From IMG/VR virus record IMGVR_UViG_2541047885_000001: a DNA stretch of 21,692 nucleotides; one strand, written 5' to 3'. The position numbers were made by a program, and so were the translations under genes. Under the pieces are notes generated by a model. That model did not search any database. It saw only the letters and a program-made list of their open reading frames with translations, and was not told where the DNA came from. This stretch comes from a virus. Taxonomy: Duplodnaviria > Heunggongvirae > Uroviricota > Caudoviricetes. Positions 1,155 through 19,381 of the stretch are shown in pieces (position 1 is the first letter of the stretch; every line of letters starts with the position of its first letter).

Positions 1155-1188
1155 GCACATCCCTGTGCCGCCGTTCTGTCAGAAGAAC
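1155..1188. repeat. Right arm of the 34-bp inverted repeat; overlaps the last codons and stop of ant
   Basis: Exact reverse complement of 1..34; the ant stop codon (1179..1181) lies inside the arm. Confidence 0.85.
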
Positions 1189-2123
1189 CCTGCTTTGTCG
1201 TTGATATACTCCGCGTGCGTCTGGATATCACGCAGGCATTTGCTCACACCGACGATGTAGCAGAACATGGTGGTCAGCTCCGCCGCCGCGCCCGATACAT
1301 CGTGCCCGTCGTCCTGCAACTGGTTTAGCAGATTCATCAGCAGTGAGTTCTCCGTCAGGCCGAGAACACCAGACGGAGAATGAATCAGGCTGCGGTAGCC
1401 GGGCTTCAGCGGATAACCATAACATTTTGTCTGTGTTTTAATTGCCTCACGAAGCGCATCTAACATCTTGACTGCCACTTCATCATTCTCTGATGCAGAT
1501 CCAGCAGGGAGATGCTCCCCTTCAAGCGGAACCCGAGCAACAAGAGACAACGCTTCGGCGAATTGATCTTCATCAATTTCTTTGTACGAACAGCCAAAAT
1601 GAGATTTCAGTGACGACCACATGGTGATCATCGCCTTAGCCTGTTTTTCTTTTGGCAGAGACTGACCGCGACTCATGACGAGTTGTTTAATGGCTTCCTG
1701 CTGTTCAGTGGTTATTTTACCCGGCAACGCCTTTTTAGCTTTGCGTGGGTTAACCACATGGCCTTTAGTCCAGTACTCGTAGAGCACATCGTCACACTCT
1801 TCCTGATACTGGATTACCTTGTCGCGGATTTCAGGACGGACTTTGTTAGGGCTGATGGTTTGCAACCAGCCAGCAAGTTTGCGAAGTGCCAAACAAATAA
1901 TCTCACGGCGCTGTTCATCCCCAGGAAGCTGCATTGTGATTTTCACAATGCAGGTTTTAAACCGCTGCTTCATTTTCGTAAACTGTGAAGCCCAATCCAT
2001 ACCCATGCCTTCAACGATAGGTTTCATTGGGGTGTACGGTTCTCCGTTGTGATTGACAACATAAAGTTCTGCGCCGTGGAATGGCACGTTGATAGTAGAT
2101 ACCGCTGTTGCTATACTCGTCAT
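1179..2123 (-). CDS. ant: Phage antirepressor (Ant-like), 314 aa
   Basis: Sits downstream of an Arc-like gene and divergent from an Mnt-like gene, as in P22 immI. N-terminal region looks like antirepressor N-domains; size close to P22 Ant (300 aa). Confidence 0.75.
   Translation of the reverse strand: MTSIATAVSTINVPFHGAELYVVNHNGEPYTPMKPIVEGMGMDWASQFTKMKQRFKTCIVKITMQLPGDEQRREIICLALRKLAGWLQTISPNKVRPEIRDKVIQYQEECDDVLYEYWTKGHVVNPRKAKKALPGKITTEQQEAIKQLVMSRGQSLPKEKQAKAMITMWSSLKSHFGCSYKEIDEDQFAEALSLVARVPLEGEHLPAGSASENDEVAVKMLDALREAIKTQTKCYGYPLKPGYRSLIHSPSGVLGLTENSLLMNLLNQLQDDGHDVSGAAAELTTMFCYIVGVSKCLRDIQTHAEYINDKAGFF
2089..2117 (+). promoter_or_regulatory. Sigma70-like promoter antisense to the ant 5' end (candidate Psar)
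   Basis: TTGATA (2089..2094), 17-bp spacer, TATACT (2112..2117); predicted start near 2124, opposite the ant start codon (2121..2123). Confidence 0.45.
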
Positions 2124-2197
2124 GTCGTTAATTCCTATACGTAGTTTTACGATACTGAAGCCCTGACGGTCTGGCCACCGTTGGGCTTCGCTGTTTT
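2124..2197 (+). ncRNA. Candidate sar-like antisense RNA (~70-75 nt) covering the ant start codon and RBS
   Basis: Runs from the antisense promoter to a plus-strand hairpin (GAAGCCC 2157..2163 paired with GGGCTTC 2183..2189, inner ACGGT/ACCGT stem) followed by a T-rich stretch. Complementary to the ant SD (2133..2136) and ATG. Architecture parallels P22 sar. Confidence 0.4.
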
Positions 2198-2363
2198 ATG
2201 CCACGCTATTCTTCTCACCAGTGAGTCCATACACTTTCCTCAGCTGATAGATAATCTCTGTATTGAACTTTCGGCATTCTTTTTCGCCATTTCTTTCAAT
2301 AGCTAACTTCACATCGTCCGGAAAACGAACTCGTCGTTGACACATCTCTTTTGCTTTTTGCAT
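2196..2363 (-). CDS. arc: Arc-like ribbon-helix-helix repressor (55 aa from ATG 2363; the ORF track extends to a TTG at 2399)
   Basis: ATG at 2363 with AAGGAG 7 nt upstream. Translation matches the Arc pattern (basic N-terminal beta strand, RVRFPDDV..., NTEIIYQL). Lies immediately upstream of ant. Confidence 0.8.
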   Translation of the reverse strand: MQKAKEMCQRRVRFPDDVKLAIERNGEKECRKFNTEIIYQLRKVYGLTGEKNSVA

Positions 2364-2378
2364 TTCATATCTCCTTAG

Positions 2379-2447
2379 CCCCACCGTGGGGCAAAACAAT
2401 TGTCACACCGTGCGTCATTGATGTCAAGCACACGGTGAGGCATACTT
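2379..2447. promoter_or_regulatory. Divergent Pant / Pmnt promoter region with three candidate operator heptamers
   Basis: Minus strand: TTGACA (2427..2422), 17 bp, GACAAT (2404..2399). Plus strand: TTGATG (2418..2423), 17 bp, CATACT (2441..2446). CACCGTG at 2382..2388 and 2406..2412, and its inverse CACGGTG at 2431..2437; near-palindrome CCCCACCGTGGGG at 2379..2391. Confidence 0.5.
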
Positions 2448-2483: not shown

Positions 2484-2915
2484 ATGAGCAGAGAAGATCC
2501 ACAACTAAGGATCAGACTTCCCGTTGAAGTAAAAGAAAAAATAGAAATTTCTGCAAAAGCCAATAAGCGATCAATGAACGCTGAAATAGTACAACGTCTT
2601 GACACCAGCTTTCTGAAAGATATTCATGAAGATGACGTAATTTCTGCTTATGAAGCAAAAATTATTGCAAACAATGCACGACATGAAATATTAAATATTA
2701 TTTTCAAAAGAACCTTTAATGAAATTAATAAGAAAATAACACTTGGACATACAAGTTTTTATATAAACCTTAATGACCTTGAACTGGAATCACTTGCAGA
2801 TAATGATTACCAGATCATCTTTGAAAAAACATTTAATAAGCTCAATGAACTAGGTTACATCATCTGTGAAAACTCATGGGATGCAGATGGTTTTGGAATT
2901 GAAATACCTGAATAG
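2484..2915 (+). CDS. mnt: Mnt-like RHH repressor (143 aa) with an unrecognised ~95-aa C-terminal domain
   Basis: ATG at 2484 with GGTGA 5 nt upstream. N-terminus (DPQLRIRLPVEVKEKIEISAKANKRSMNAEIVQRL) closely resembles the P22 Mnt DNA-binding domain as I recall it. C-terminal domain contains an internal repeat. About 30% GC. Confidence 0.8.
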   Translation: MSREDPQLRIRLPVEVKEKIEISAKANKRSMNAEIVQRLDTSFLKDIHEDDVISAYEAKIIANNARHEILNIIFKRTFNEINKKITLGHTSFYINLNDLELESLADNDYQIIFEKTFNKLNELGYIICENSWDADGFGIEIPE

Positions 2916-2926
2916 GAAGAACAAAA

Positions 2927-2947
2927 GGCGTGTACATATTACACGTC
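2927..2947 (+). other. Hairpin between mnt-like and the downstream gene (possible partial terminator or attenuator)
   Basis: GGCGTGTA / TACACGTC stem with a 5-nt loop, followed by TTTAATA. Confidence 0.3.
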
Positions 2948-3005
2948 TTTAATACAATTGAAAAACGCCACATTACTGATGTATGTTACAACAAGGAGCG
3001 ATATT

Positions 3006-3569
3006 TTGAAAACCATATCTATATTAAAGGTTGCATTAGGCGTCGCTATTATTTTGACTCTCTCAATATTGTTTTATTTTTACCACAAAAAAACTGCTAT
3101 TGCTCTTGATGGTCACACGGCAAACTCATTTTTCTCAGAGTACATAGTGCCGCTATCAGGAAGCGGTATAACAAATAAATATACTGACTATGACATCAAA
3201 TATGGAATTGATGATGGGAAGACTATTGTATTACATGTAATCATTAAAAACCTAATGACAGTAAATAAAAATACAGACTTTAACGATAAAAATACAATAC
3301 ATCACAACAACAGCAAAACATTAATTTCTTATAGTAGCAACATCTATACGGATAAATACCTAAAATACATATCAGAAGATACAATAAAAGAAACCCGCGA
3401 AAAGTTAAAAAACATATATTGTGCATCCGGCAGTTTTCACAAATTATCGCCGCAAGAGCGTTTATTCTACGAAGCAAGAAAACAACGTAAGTCAATAATA
3501 TTACATTATTATGCTGATTCAGGGGAATCACTCATATTTAATATTGGGGTTTCCCCTGAATCATGCTAA
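3006..3569 (+). CDS. Hypothetical single-pass membrane protein (187 aa from TTG 3006; alternative ATG at 2979), low-GC cargo
   Basis: Perfect AAGGAG (2993..2998) 7 nt upstream of TTG 3006. N-terminal hydrophobic helix ISILKVALGVAIILTLSILFYFY followed by HKK. Same strand as and just downstream of mnt-like. Asn/Lys/Tyr/Ile-rich. Confidence 0.7.
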   Translation: MKTISILKVALGVAIILTLSILFYFYHKKTAIALDGHTANSFFSEYIVPLSGSGITNKYTDYDIKYGIDDGKTIVLHVIIKNLMTVNKNTDFNDKNTIHHNNSKTLISYSSNIYTDKYLKYISEDTIKETREKLKNIYCASGSFHKLSPQERLFYEARKQRKSIILHYYADSGESLIFNIGVSPESC

Positions 3570-3580
3570 AGGTGTTTAAC

Positions 3581-6500
3581 TCACCGCATCACCGGATCCA
3601 CCTGGTTTATTAGTGGCGCAATCCAGAACAGGTTATTGCCTGGTATCAGGGTTCGGGCATTATGCACAATACGATCACCGGCATCACCATTCAACACTCC
3701 TGCGGTCACATCAATGATGCTATCCGCAAGACCAAATGACGGTCCGAATAGAGATCCTACGAATCCACGACTGGCATACCTAGACTGTGTGCCAGTGCCA
3801 AATAAAGCCCCCAGCCCAACAGCACCACCAGTAGCCTTTTCAGCCATGTTGTTATATTCCATCAATGGTCCAAGAATACCGGATCTATCTATACCCTCAA
3901 GCACCAGTTTCTCTGGTGACCAGTCAACATTTTTCCCTTTCGATGCTTCTTTAAGCGCATAGACCAGTGAGCCAAGAGCAATCTGAAATGCAGTGCCATA
4001 ATAAAATTGCGCAGTTCCTTCCTGTAACCCACCAAGTAGCGCACGGTTGTATGAAGCCGTTGTGAATGATTTAAACTGAAATATCGTTCGCCCCATTGGA
4101 GTACTCGCCCATAAAGGTGTGTCACCAATACCGGGGGTGATGATAGTGTTATTAACGTCTTTCAGAACCGCTGACTGGAATACTCCGGCAACGTACTGAT
4201 CATCCCATTTATCAAAGTTACCAATGTGCCATCCATCAATTACCTCGCCATGTTTCCCGAACTCACTGCGAATACGTGCAGCCATATTGTCGTTGATACC
4301 GAGTTTTGCCAGGCGGCGTGCAGGAAATGCACCGGACAAAATACCGTCTGAAATAACCATTCCGTTCATGGATTTGTTTATGTCATTAAAGCGATCCATG
4401 AGTGTCAGCTTGCCGAAGGCATCAGTAATTCGCTCCATTCCGGCTTCGACTGCTGTTGTCCTGGAAGAGCTGTCAACAAGATCACCAATTGCACGAGAGC
4501 GTGAATGCAGTACAGTTTCCAGTCCGATACCCATCTTCAACATCTCTTCTTTGCTGGCCTTAAATGCCGGTGATTGGGATATCTGAGAAGCATAGCCTTT
4601 CATGGTGTTACGGAAACCATTAACCATAACCCCTCTGGCCAGATCTGGAATAGCTGATACTGTCATTCCACCGAGTTTGGTCGTGAAGTTCACATCCCGC
4701 AGAAAAGCGCCAGCACGAACAAAAAACGAAGACGGATCATCAGGCATCCCATATGTACCAACAAGACGATCGCGTAATGCTGTTATGTCTCTGAGATCAT
4801 TTGCTCTTGATTTTGAAAGTCTGGACTGTTCTTTCCGTAATTCCTTTTCGTACTTTCGCATTAATGAATCGAGTTTACCCTGAGGAACAACTTCACCATT
4901 GCTCTCATAACGTGCTTTCAGATTTGCCACACTTTCGTCATATTTCGCCTTTATTTTTTCAGGCACTTCCCGTAACAGACTGTCATATTCGTCCTCAATT
5001 AATTGCAGACGCTCAGTCATAGTTCGTTTGCCAAATGTTCTCGTCAACTCAATTTCTGCTGCCGCTTCACGGATATGACGTTGCAGCACGTAATTCACAT
5101 CACTTTCAAGATAATCCCTGATAAGACTATCAGGAACATTTAATGTTCTTTCTTTCGTACTACCTGCGGCTTTTACAGAAAATACGCTGACAAAATCCTG
5201 TGGAACCTTAGCACCAGTAATTTTATTAATTACGATATCTGCTGCAATTTCAGCATCCTCAGGAACCAGTGTTTTATTTCCTCTCGACCACCAGTCAACC
5301 AAAATACGTCGAAATTTATCGCGTTCACTGATTATTTTTCCAACTTTATATATGCGTGGGAAATAGCTTGCCTGGCCTAATGCTTTCAGTTCTTCATCTG
5401 GCGGCAATAAACCAAGCTTTTGCATTTCAACTTTCACCCGATTTAATACAGTTCGCATCGCCTGCGCCGTTTCCTGAACAACAGGATTAGCATGCACATC
5501 ACCGCTTCGCATAGCATTCCCAACCTGCTGACGAAATGAATCAAAACTCATGTCACCACCATCAGCTTTATACTTTGCGTATGCCTGTTTATTTCCGACA
5601 ACAACAGCAGCTTCTTCACGCTGCCATCCACGTGTACGGGTTTCTACAGCTACCGGTGTTTCAATCCCCCTTTCATTTCCTTTAAGGGTGAAATTATTTT
5701 CGGCTAACTCCAGCGTTGTTTTTCGCACTGTCCTGGACGGAGACTCCATTAACCTTGTCAAAGGAGTAAGATAGCTCCCTGCTTTCCATGCAGCCTTTCC
5801 AACCACCCCACCAGAAACAGGGGTTAAATCATCCAGAGTCGCTGTATCAATTTTCATAGCACCAACACTACCACCATCGGAAAGCGAAGCGGCAGCCCTG
5901 TCAGTCACTGATGTAATGCTCATATTATCAAGAGCATCAGCAACCTCACGTGTGGCTGCAGCCCGGACGGATGGCGAAAGCGCAACACCAGCACTGGCAA
6001 ACACGCCGCTCATCATCGCCCCCGCTGCAACGTGAGCGGCACTTTCACCCCATGAGCGTGTTATTTGCTGATTATTCAGTACAACCTCGCTTAATGCTGT
6101 ACCGGCAGCACCAATCGCAATCTGTGAGCCAATACGCGCCAGTGCCCCTCCTTGAGCACCGGGAATAAACATTGACGCAACAGTAACCGGATCCATTCCC
6201 GCAGCAATACTGGCAAGGGTTCCAACTACGCCAGCATCAGACAATAAACGTCTGTCTTCATTTTCATCATCTATCTGCTGCTTAATCCACGCCGTTTCCT
6301 CTGGTGATCGGGAATCTGCAAATTTCGCCCCCCAGTATTCATAACCGTGCAACTCATTTTTATCAGCATATGGGTTATAACCCTCGACCGGTTCAAACTG
6401 TCTGGCTGGGCGGAAAAAACCAGACAGAATATTGTTCTGTCGCATTGCAGCCCCCCATACGGAAGGCTCAGGTGGCAATGGCTCAGGATTAGCCCCTTCC

Positions 6501-15310: not shown

Positions 15311-16006
15311 TTATTTGCCATAGAGCACTTCGGCCGCACTACGCTGGCCTTCATTACCACCGGTGACCATGCCATCTTCAGACATCGCCTTTCCGATTTT
15401 CACGAACGTTTTGACCAGATCAGGGTGATTACCCAGCCCGGTGGTGTTCAGATATTCTTTGAGTTCAGGTGTCCCGAACTGGTCAAGCGCACGCTGTGCG
15501 GCGCTAAGGTTAGAAATCAACTTGTCGCCACCGATTTCTTTGTCGGCTTTTACATCCGCAGCCCACTGCTCGGTTGTTTTCTGCCAGGCTTCTGCCTGGC
15601 GCTGCTGAACACCTGCCAGAATCTTCGGATAAGCATCAACCAGCTTTTGCGCTTGCTCGTTGGTCAGGTTTAGTTCTCGCGCCACCGGCTCGAATTCCTT
15701 CAACGCTTCTGTATCCAGCTCTACGCCTTCGGCAGCCTGAAACTCGTACTTTTCAGGCGCACCCTCTGGTTTATCGCCGTCCTTTTTTTCACCCTGCTTA
15801 TCGTTTTCAGGCTTTTTGTTATCAGCAGGTTTATCGCCATCAGCAACAGGTTGTGGCTTATCACCTTCCTGTTGTGATGGATCACCAACTGGAGCAGGGT
15901 TATCACCTGCAGGCGCTGACGGTTCTGACGCAGCCGGAGCTGCTCCACCATCGACTGGTTGCTCATTGCAAAGACGGCGATACAGCAAACGCTCAAATAA
16001 ATTCAT
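15311..16006 (-). CDS. Scaffolding protein (231 aa from ATG 16006; the ORF track starts at GTG 16012)
   Basis: Acidic, Pro/Ala/Asp/Lys-rich low-complexity N-terminal half and helical C-terminal half; lies between portal and capsid genes. AGGAG 6 nt upstream of ATG 16006. Confidence 0.8.
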   Translation of the reverse strand: MNLFERLLYRRLCNEQPVDGGAAPAASEPSAPAGDNPAPVGDPSQQEGDKPQPVADGDKPADNKKPENDKQGEKKDGDKPEGAPEKYEFQAAEGVELDTEALKEFEPVARELNLTNEQAQKLVDAYPKILAGVQQRQAEAWQKTTEQWAADVKADKEIGGDKLISNLSAAQRALDQFGTPELKEYLNTTGLGNHPDLVKTFVKIGKAMSEDGMVTGGNEGQRSAAEVLYGK

Positions 16007-16008
16007 GA

Positions 16009-16305
16009 TCACTCCTGTTCACTGGCCTCTTTGGCCATCTTCAAATACTGTTCAGGGCAATGCGCCATAACGCGCTGAAACAGTTCCAGCGCCAGATTGC
16101 GTTGCCCCTCATTAAATGCCATTGCCATAGCGTCCATCGGTGAGATAGCGGAAAACACACGGCCTTTCTCCAGCACCGACCAGACAACGCGACGCCCCTG
16201 TTCACTGCTCATGACAAAGCAAATGTCATCAATTTCACGCTGTGCCATGTCACGTTGCTTACGGGCGTTTTCTTCTTTCAGTTGATCGTCTTCGTAATCT
16301 GTCAT
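16009..16305 (-). CDS. Hypothetical small protein (98 aa) between portal and scaffold
   Basis: ATGA overlap with the portal stop (16302..16305); its stop is 2 nt before the scaffold ATG. Confidence 0.6.
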   Translation of the reverse strand: MTDYEDDQLKEENARKQRDMAQREIDDICFVMSSEQGRRVVWSVLEKGRVFSAISPMDAMAMAFNEGQRNLALELFQRVMAHCPEQYLKMAKEASEQE

Positions 16306-18300: not shown

Positions 18301-19011
18301 CAGGTAACCAAAGAGTTCATTCCGGTTACTAACCTGACTGGCTTGTCGTTAAATTGAACAGGTGGAGTGAGCTTTTATTTTGAGCAGTACGGCGTATGGC
18401 ACATGCGCCGATAGCGGTCTGGATACGTTTAAGGGGCACCCTCCCTTGCTCGGGCAAACGAACCAGGTAGCCGGAATGTGCAAGTCGAGCGGTTTTATTC
18501 CGCGCACGGGGATTCACCATCCCGGCGATCAGGTGTGACACCTCGGAAGAGACGAGGATGCAACAGGTAAGAGCATTGAGATTGATCGTCGTTCCTGGGC
18601 CCAAGGTCTGCTCGAAGTCAGTGCTCTTTCCGTTGTGGTGAATGCGCAGGCTGATGCGCACCCCGTGAACGTGGGGGAATGGGTAAGGCATAAGCCTGAG
18701 TTGGAAGACAAGCTGCGTGAATAGCCGGAAGTCAGGGTTACCCAACAAACTCAGTGAAAATCATGACGCATATCCTCTTGAGAGAGTGGCAGCTAACACT
18801 GAGCATATTTCAAGCCGGAGATCAGCACCGGCCACCACAACCCAATCACGTTAGGACCGTGATACGGCAGTACCAGGCAATGCGTGTAGCTTTGGCGGTG
18901 GCAGTTCTCCTTCTTCTGACCACCGCCCTTTTTACAGCAGAACGCCATTCCGATGACGTTGCGCTGTAAACCCTGCATCACCCGCCAAGGAAGGCACTCC
19001 GTTGATCATTC
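18300..19011 (+). ncRNA. ORF-poor ~700-nt region; candidate structured RNA or long regulatory leader (function unknown)
   Basis: No convincing ORF on either strand despite ~55% GC; bounded by a consensus -35 upstream and an intrinsic terminator placed 12 nt before the next RBS. Several GC-rich hairpins visible. Confidence 0.2.
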
Positions 19012-19036
19012 GCCCGGTTCGTCCGGGCATTTTTTT
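19012..19036 (+). terminator. Intrinsic terminator or attenuator immediately upstream of the 110-aa gene
   Basis: GCCCGG-TTCGT-CCGGGC hairpin followed by a T7 tract, then AAGGTGA RBS and the ATG at 19049. Confidence 0.6.
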
Positions 19037-19048
19037 AAGGTGAAAATC

Positions 19049-19381
19049 ATGAAAGAGAAGACTGCAGCTGAGCGCTATGCCGCAGCTATCAATGCCGCGA
19101 TGGCGATTGTAAACCTGCGTGAAGAGATTAAAGATCTCCTTGCAATTATCCATAACAACCTGACATGTACAGAGTTGCTTGGCGGTCAGTACAACGGTGA
19201 GGCGGTGAAGGAGGCATTTAAAAATGCCGAGGTAGGAATAATTCCAGCAAACTATGTCAAGGCTGAATGTGTGCTCCTAAAGGCACGAGTGAGTCTGCAT
19301 GAAGATCCTGGTAATCTCGGTCGAACTGCAATGCGTTACGTGATAGACGAGTCGAATGCCAAACACAATCTACCGAAATAA
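19049..19381 (+). CDS. Hypothetical protein (110 aa), cargo gene inserted between terL and portal on the opposite strand
   Basis: ATG at 19049 with AAGGTGA 5 nt upstream; in ORF-track frame 18953..19381; followed by the palindrome and a terminator. Confidence 0.7.
   Translation: MKEKTAAERYAAAINAAMAIVNLREEIKDLLAIIHNNLTCTELLGGQYNGEAVKEAFKNAEVGIIPANYVKAECVLLKARVSLHEDPGNLGRTAMRYVIDESNAKHNLPK

Follow-up and report, generated by a model that had tools for sequence, protein, structure and literature searches.

Look-alike helices in the C-terminal domain of a putative Mnt-position repressor from an immI-like antirepressor module

The repressor Mnt of phage P22 is a protein of 83 aa in which a ribbon-helix-helix (RHH) domain is followed by a single C-terminal helix, and its gene is divergent from arc-ant. 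The C-terminal helix reportedly forms a tetramerising coiled coil, Mnt being a tetramer in solution that needs its tail to bind the operator with high affinity; 1MNT, and presumably also 1QEY, are structures of this protein. In the databases, P22 Mnt carries Pfam PF03869 together with PF11423 and belongs to phrog_795, while PF11423 was present in 120/120 of the P22 Mnt homologues among the matches listed. P22-type Mnt proteins (phrog_795; in RefSeq, for example, the mnt gene of NC_011976) are widely named 'partition protein ATPase', which for an 83-aa RHH repressor is an annotation error. Other RHH regulators have globular C-terminal oligomerisation or sensor domains, for example NikR with its ACT-like domain for tetramerisation and Ni binding. 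The repressor that we describe here is a full-length member of phrog_1388, whose members of 142-150 aa occur in Enterobacterales prophages as 'Arc family DNA-binding protein' and share its gene neighbourhood. This family is listed as function unknown, and its annotation covers the Arc domain only.

A repressor in the Mnt position of an immI-like module

The stretch of DNA that we analysed (the window; 21,692 nucleotides of the Caudoviricetes record IMGVR_UViG_2541047885_000001) contains on its plus strand a repressor gene in the Mnt position (2484..2915; 143 aa plus stop). The open reading frame (ORF) listing begins the same gene at TTG 2454; the supported start is ATG 2484, because all homologues begin with MSREDPQ and the DNA conservation between loci restarts at ATGAGCAGAGAAGA. 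The phrog_1388 match spans the full length of the protein (E=2.6e-71; residues 1-143 align with all 143 positions of the profile). For comparison 262 homologues were gathered, and homologues with 57-68% identity were found in Citrobacter, Enterobacter, Yersinia, Proteus and others.

The N-terminal part of the protein (residues 1-46; 2484..2621, plus strand) is an Arc/Mnt-type RHH domain. Its Pfam PF03869 Arc match (residues 2-46) reached 54.5 bits (cut-off 20.4), which places it in the Arc/MetJ RHH superfamily. Solved Mnt, Arc and AmrZ all match over the same N-terminal residues, the best PDB relative being solved Mnt (1mnt; residues 3-45, E=4e-7), and the RHH domain is shared with P22 Mnt by BLASTP as well (6e-14). 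Helices were predicted by AlphaFold at residues 14-26 and 31-41. The base contacts of the Mnt beta-strand are presumably made by H7, N9 and R11 (numbering includes Met); the present protein has Q7 for H7 and R9 for N9.

The repressor gene is divergent, as is mnt in P22, from two genes on the minus strand. The nearer one, a small Arc-like repressor gene (2196..2363), encodes 55 aa that match P22 Arc by BLASTP (E=4e-5), and the other, the antirepressor gene ant (1179..2123), encodes 314 aa with a Pfam P22_AR_N match (E=1e-44). Their counterparts in E. coli phage TL-2011b, which is 96.8% identical to the module stretch of the window, are named 'Arc-like repressor' and 'anti-repressor Ant'. The same module, consisting of a 143-147-aa gene divergent from a 55-aa gene and a Bro-N or P22_AR antirepressor gene across a spacer of about 123 bp, is shared by TL-2011b and by prophages of Y. 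pestis and Enterobacter. In these two prophages the three genes form a moron inside the tail-gene clusters. A distant family member is also divergent from small Arc-domain genes.

The spacer, here 120 bp, contains a promoter-like site for arc-ant on the minus strand (2399..2427) with TTGACA, 17 nt and TG-GACAAT, which was assigned by consensus match only (10/12 positions). Three of the window's six CAC(C/G)GTG sites also sit in the spacer at intervals of 24-25 bp, and these are our candidate operators O1, O2 and O3 (given without strand). O1, the palindrome GCCCCACCGTGGGGC (2378..2392), lies 7-21 nt downstream of the -10 of the predicted ant promoter. It has a 9-bp core, CCACCGTGG, in common with P22 Omnt (AGGTCCACCGTGGACCT), and the two have the same position relative to the Pant -10. 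O2, TGTCACACCGTGCGTCA (2401..2417), covers the -10 and spacer of the ant promoter and is identical in 4/4 loci; it occupies the position of P22 Oarc, yet has an Omnt-like core. O3, AGCACACGGTGAGGC (2427..2441), abuts the -35, has no equivalent by position in P22, and occurs in the Yersinia and Enterobacter loci as the variant CCCCACGGTGGGGC. Across the four loci compared, which include E. coli, Y. pestis and Enterobacter, O1-O3 are nearly invariant or strongly conserved. While P22 has one Omnt, there are thus three CAC(C/G)GTG sites at this locus.

The locus is a P22 immI-like antirepressor module. Judged from sequence, the repressor appears to share with the strict P22 Mnt family the divergent gene layout and the Omnt-type palindrome, but not the C-terminal PF11423, which gave no match at E<=1.

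Several further features of the region were observed. Compared with the window (2508-2512), TL-2011b (NC_019445, around position 5410) has one extra G at codon 9 (CTAAGGGATC versus CTAAGGATC). The extra G, whether a genuine mutation that inactivates the gene or an error in sequencing, frameshifts the RHH domain that is intact in the window copy, and RefSeq consequently annotates only a 113-aa 'hypothetical protein' from Met31 in TL-2011b. Directly past the repressor stop, a scan identified the inverted repeat AAAGGCGTGTA / TACACGTCTTT (2924-2950). It is terminator-like on the minus strand, and it may serve as a terminator that separates the repressor gene from the AT-rich ORF downstream. This ORF (2958-3569, 203 aa) has by eye a hydrophobic stretch near its N-terminus that resembles a membrane helix, gave no match in Pfam or NCBIfam, and looks like a separately acquired moron. 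It is missing from the Yersinia and Enterobacter loci, and the C-terminal domain of the repressor is folded and has no extended toxin-binding tail; we therefore rejected a toxin-antitoxin arrangement of an RHH antitoxin with a downstream toxin.

The C-terminal domain and its two look-alike segments

Where P22 Mnt has its single helix, the repressor has a domain of about 95 residues. AlphaFold modelled this domain with high confidence when it was given alone (42-sequence alignment; pLDDT 91, pTM 0.78), and the same elements were obtained for the full-length protein (pLDDT 80.7). The predicted fold is compact, with the order alpha1-beta1-alpha2-beta2-beta3. Helix alpha1 comprises residues 55-86 (2646..2741, plus strand), strand beta1 residues 91-95 (2754..2768), helix alpha2 residues 106-123 (2799..2852) and the beta2-beta3 hairpin residues 126-140 (2859..2903). 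A conserved L-G88-H turn precedes beta1, and both models place a short helical turn between beta1 and alpha2. The original prediction had been that this part of the protein differs from the coiled-coil tail of Mnt. This is borne out by the compact three-strand alpha/beta model, by the missing PF11423 match, and by the similarity to 1mnt, which ends at residue 45.

Homology of the domain to a known family was sought in vain. For this part of the protein, Pfam returned nothing but a DUF at E 0.32, NCBIfam had no match, and a PDB profile search gave a single spurious LRR match (E=1.9). Foldseek searches of the PDB produced no significant match (E>=0.07, TM<=0.5); the best was the C-terminal winged helix of Stn1 (E=0.07, TM 0.44), followed by HSF, SepF, R3H and MarR. 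Many phage proteins of 85-120 aa in a viral structure library did resemble the model (E about 1e-3, TM 0.55-0.69). All of these are named 'uncharacterized protein', and they were set aside as a functional lead. When 1.84 billion proteins were searched exhaustively with a profile of just the C-terminal domain, no more than 46 representative clusters were obtained. The majority consist of proteins of about 140 aa that carry the domain at the same position after an N-terminal region of about 48 aa, and in the cluster members that were aligned this region is an RHH domain. This near-exclusive fusion is in keeping with a domain that assists an RHH binder.

Within this domain, two similar segments had been reported about 45 residues apart. 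Both peptides are indeed present exactly as quoted in the translation of ORF 2484-2915 (plus strand), at a start-to-start offset that we measured as 39 residues. Segment 1, NIIFKRTFNEINKKI, comprises residues 71-85 (2694..2738) in the C-terminal half of alpha1, and segment 2, QIIFEKTFNKLNELG, comprises residues 110-124 (2811..2855), which is most of alpha2 plus the capping Gly124. According to the model, the segments thus belong to the domain's two main amphipathic helices, where they make up the second half of alpha1 and almost the whole of alpha2. Both helices lead in the model into a Gly, an aromatic residue and then a strand. Alpha1 is the longer helix, with 32 residues versus 18 in alpha2, and there is one strand more in the second unit. 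Instead of a tandem-repeat fold, the prediction shows one two-layer alpha/beta domain that does not separate into two repeats.

The segments are identical at 7/15 residues. A gapped off-diagonal self-alignment of the protein scored 46, compared with 27 +/- 4.7 in shuffled sequences, of which 3/1000 equalled the observed score. The likeness thus exceeds chance in this protein, and the outcome named beforehand as refuting it, a self-alignment score no better than that of shuffled controls, was not obtained. When the hydrophobic/polar pattern was preserved in the shuffles, the score was matched in 4-6/1000, and 23-26% of these shuffles had their best self-match at the same offset as the segments. 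These results indicate that the helices share a hydrophobic periodicity and that residue identities add further signal. By ungapped self-similarity the protein ranks second among the 22 ORFs of the window (z = 4.6), most of which lie between -1 and +1.4. The only higher value (z 5.5) belongs to an ORF of 233 aa on the minus strand (15311-16012), which has an N-terminal acidic/proline GDKP-like low-complexity repeat with a period of about 14 aa. Another ORF, of 142 aa on the plus strand (18953-19381), has a self-similarity z of 3.5 between residues 8-38 and 106-136, which may be chance. At the DNA level the two segments share 26/45 bases and a repeat scan revealed no direct repeat between them, on which grounds a recent DNA duplication was rejected.

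Likeness of the segments across the family

In the fixed register of the two segments, the window protein scored 41, relatives at 57-66% identity scored 10-28, and distant members scored -12 to +15. What the relatives at 57-66% identity retain is hhFxxTFxxh only, and distant relatives retain nothing. The motif hhFxxTFxxh was found only in the enterobacterial subfamily and is probably an aromatic packing motif. The pairs T77-F78 and T116-F117 vary little or not at all in the close subfamily. Across the whole family the nearly invariant residues are A55 and A58 at the start of alpha1 and L120, G124 and Y125, with G88 also among the few conserved positions; R76, E80, N82 and H89 are conserved polar residues.

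Within the phrog_1388 family, the window copy stands out in two ways: its two helices are the most alike, and its C-terminal half is exceptionally rich in AT. This half has 29% GC, 20% GC at third codon positions (GC3) and 44% F/I/N/K/Y, compared with 40-43% GC and 28-29% F/I/N/K/Y in the Yersinia pestis and Enterobacter homologues. The AT-rich composition probably adds to the resemblance between the segments, and the extra I, N and K identities of the window copy would be a product of this bias. The C-terminal half of the repressor gene lies, together with the downstream ORF, in a sharp low-GC island (2575-3550; 25-37% GC versus about 48% for the window), which may mark a recombination joint within the repressor gene.

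Such a composition raises the question of whether the likeness is pure coincidence, drawn from a small F/I/N/K-rich alphabet and devoid of structural meaning. The segments were singled out after a scan of the whole window, which entails a look-elsewhere effect, and P-values of about 0.02 were also reached by other helix pairs. Against this, shuffles that preserve precisely this composition matched the score in just 3/1000 cases, and the F..TF..h core recurs in 26 relatives of normal composition. The motif pair is, moreover, already conserved within the Enterobacterales, and both segments fall on equivalent elements of a confident model. We consider coincidence very improbable. With p about 0.003-0.006 for the likeness in this protein, chance and composition together may not explain all of it.

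An ancient intragenic duplication deserves more weight. In that scenario the alpha/beta domain was built by doubling an ancestral helix-Gly-strand unit, which may itself have come from the C-terminal helix of an Mnt-like protein, and the enterobacterial subfamily, the window copy above all, has kept the likeness. In its favour is a profile-profile comparison (HHalign) of the halves 55-100 and 101-143 in the close subfamily, which gave a score of 21.8 with P=1.4e-4 and was equalled by 0/300 column shuffles. The sequence L-G-(H/Y) and then a strand follow both segments, and G88, G124 and Y125 of these turns belong to the family-wide conserved positions. Furthermore, the Thr-Phe pair that is invariant in both helices of the close subfamily could be pseudo-symmetric packing left from a real duplication. 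However, the likeness of an ancestral duplication would persist or grow in family profiles, and here it fades: for the broad family, the same halves scored 10.7 with P=0.027, and 11/300 column shuffles were as good. Adding distant homologues therefore weakens the signal rather than strengthening it, and the distant members individually score around zero in this register. The profile-profile alignment is also confined to 14 helix columns, matching L-G-(H/Y) between the units requires a shift of 3 residues, the two units differ in helix length and strand number as described above, and the copy with the top score is an outlier that is unusually AT-rich as well.

The relation to the Mnt tail itself can be read in two directions. 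Compared with the C-terminal domain, a family profile of the P22 Mnt tail helix matches alpha2 (P=0.014-0.021, with 4-5/200 shuffles as good), and this weak resemblance is what a duplicated Mnt-like helix might have left behind. Conversely, since the Mnt tail helix reaches about 0.02 on alpha2, P-values of 0.01-0.03 have to be regarded as background for unrelated or barely related amphipathic helices in this comparison. All in all, we regard an ancient duplication as unlikely. The likeness of the segments is a genuine motif pair of the close subfamily that is enhanced in the window copy, and an internal duplication cannot be demonstrated from it. The original prediction of a duplicated structural unit in place of the Mnt coiled-coil tail is thereby upheld in its second half only: the tail is indeed a different one, but the likeness that was to mark the duplication decays across homologues.

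We propose that the likeness is made up of three components. The first would be a matching hydrophobic periodicity, which by itself gives this register as the best self-match in about one quarter of the pattern-preserving shuffles. The second would be the motif hhFxxTFxxh of the enterobacterial subfamily, and the third the additional I, N and K identities that are peculiar to the very AT-rich window copy.

A proposed role for the C-terminal domain

By its place in the module, the protein is probably the maintenance repressor of ant. Its RHH dimers would bind the CAC(C/G)GTG palindromes that cover the arc-ant promoter, with O1 possibly acting as the equivalent of Omnt. The C-terminal domain would join RHH dimers into tetramers or higher oligomers, and dimers joined in this way could occupy the operators cooperatively and keep ant off in the lysogen. 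The domain most likely oligomerises in place of the Mnt coiled coil, a role that we deduce from analogy and from the near-exclusive fusion to the N-terminal region of about 48 aa. The likely working analogy is NikR, in which RHH is also followed by an alpha/beta domain, for holding two RHH dimers together; searches gave no match in sequence, and no significant one in fold, between the C-terminal domain and NikR or another RHH accessory domain of solved structure, and no metal-binding motif is evident in the domain. Taken as a whole, the reading in which an immI-like repressor occupies the Mnt position, the segments are its two main C-terminal helices without a demonstrated duplication, and the domain oligomerises instead of the Mnt tail is the one that we favour, with somewhat better than even confidence.

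We also considered alpha1 as the direct counterpart of the Mnt tetramerisation helix. BLASTP and phrog_795 alignments to Mnt continue collinearly to residues 84-86, which favours alpha1, while the profile-profile comparison of the Mnt tail picks alpha2 instead (P about 0.02) and the C-terminal domain alone has no phrog_795 match at E<=1. We did not adopt this possible correspondence.

The conserved polar residues R76, E80, N82 and H89 suggest that the domain may contain a binding site and not purely a surface for oligomerisation. The domain might accordingly serve mainly to bind a partner or signal, such as Ant, the Arc-like protein, a host factor or a small molecule, and thereby modulate repression, comparable to the C-terminal domain of NikR. 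The compact globular fold with its winged-helix-like order of elements would suit this function, and the many stand-alone phage proteins of 85-120 aa with a similar predicted fold imply that the domain can act alone. Most of its closest matches in the PDB are domains that serve in protein interactions (Stn1 C-terminal, SepF and ScpA C-terminal), with DNA-binding winged helices (HSF, MarR) among them too. The winged-helix protein-contact domains of Stn1, ScpA and Cdt1 (C-terminal) have the same succession of helix, strand, short helix, helix and hairpin and are among the top Foldseek matches. These matches are weak, though (E 0.07-1.6, TM 0.27-0.46), and alpha1 with its 32 residues and the acidic to neutral alpha2, unlike a DNA-recognition helix, set the present domain apart. 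None of the structural matches is significant, and the only conserved neighbours are the arc-like gene and ant, with no other partner gene. Palindromic RHH operators, furthermore, normally need dimer-dimer contacts, and no oligomerisation element other than the C-terminal domain is evident. A main role in partner or signal binding thus seems to us rather improbable, and oligomerisation remains the preferred function.

A bolder version of the oligomerisation model would combine it with the duplication. The C-terminal domain would then be an undescribed oligomerisation or bridging module, globular and alpha/beta in fold, which arose from a duplicated amphipathic Mnt-like tail helix plus strand and allows one assembly to span the three operators. 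We judge this to be quite a long shot; if true, the architecture would be unlike the Mnt four-helix tetramer on a single operator.

The repeat alone matters little, being a shared helix-packing motif that is probably amplified by composition. What has changed is the description of the gene. It belongs to a widespread family of Enterobacterales prophage repressors, with members in relatives of E. coli Stx phages, in Yersinia pestis and in Enterobacter, Citrobacter and Proteus, that takes the place of Mnt in the antirepressor switch. The family exists in the databases but is uncharacterised, and it combines an alpha/beta domain that has no Pfam model or solved relative with a three-operator control region. 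If the domain is an oligomerisation element, then the classic Arc/Mnt switch has been rebuilt here with a different assembly module, and the family would offer a tractable system for the coupling of RHH dimers. The module controls the expression of an antirepressor, and hence prophage induction, in pathogens.
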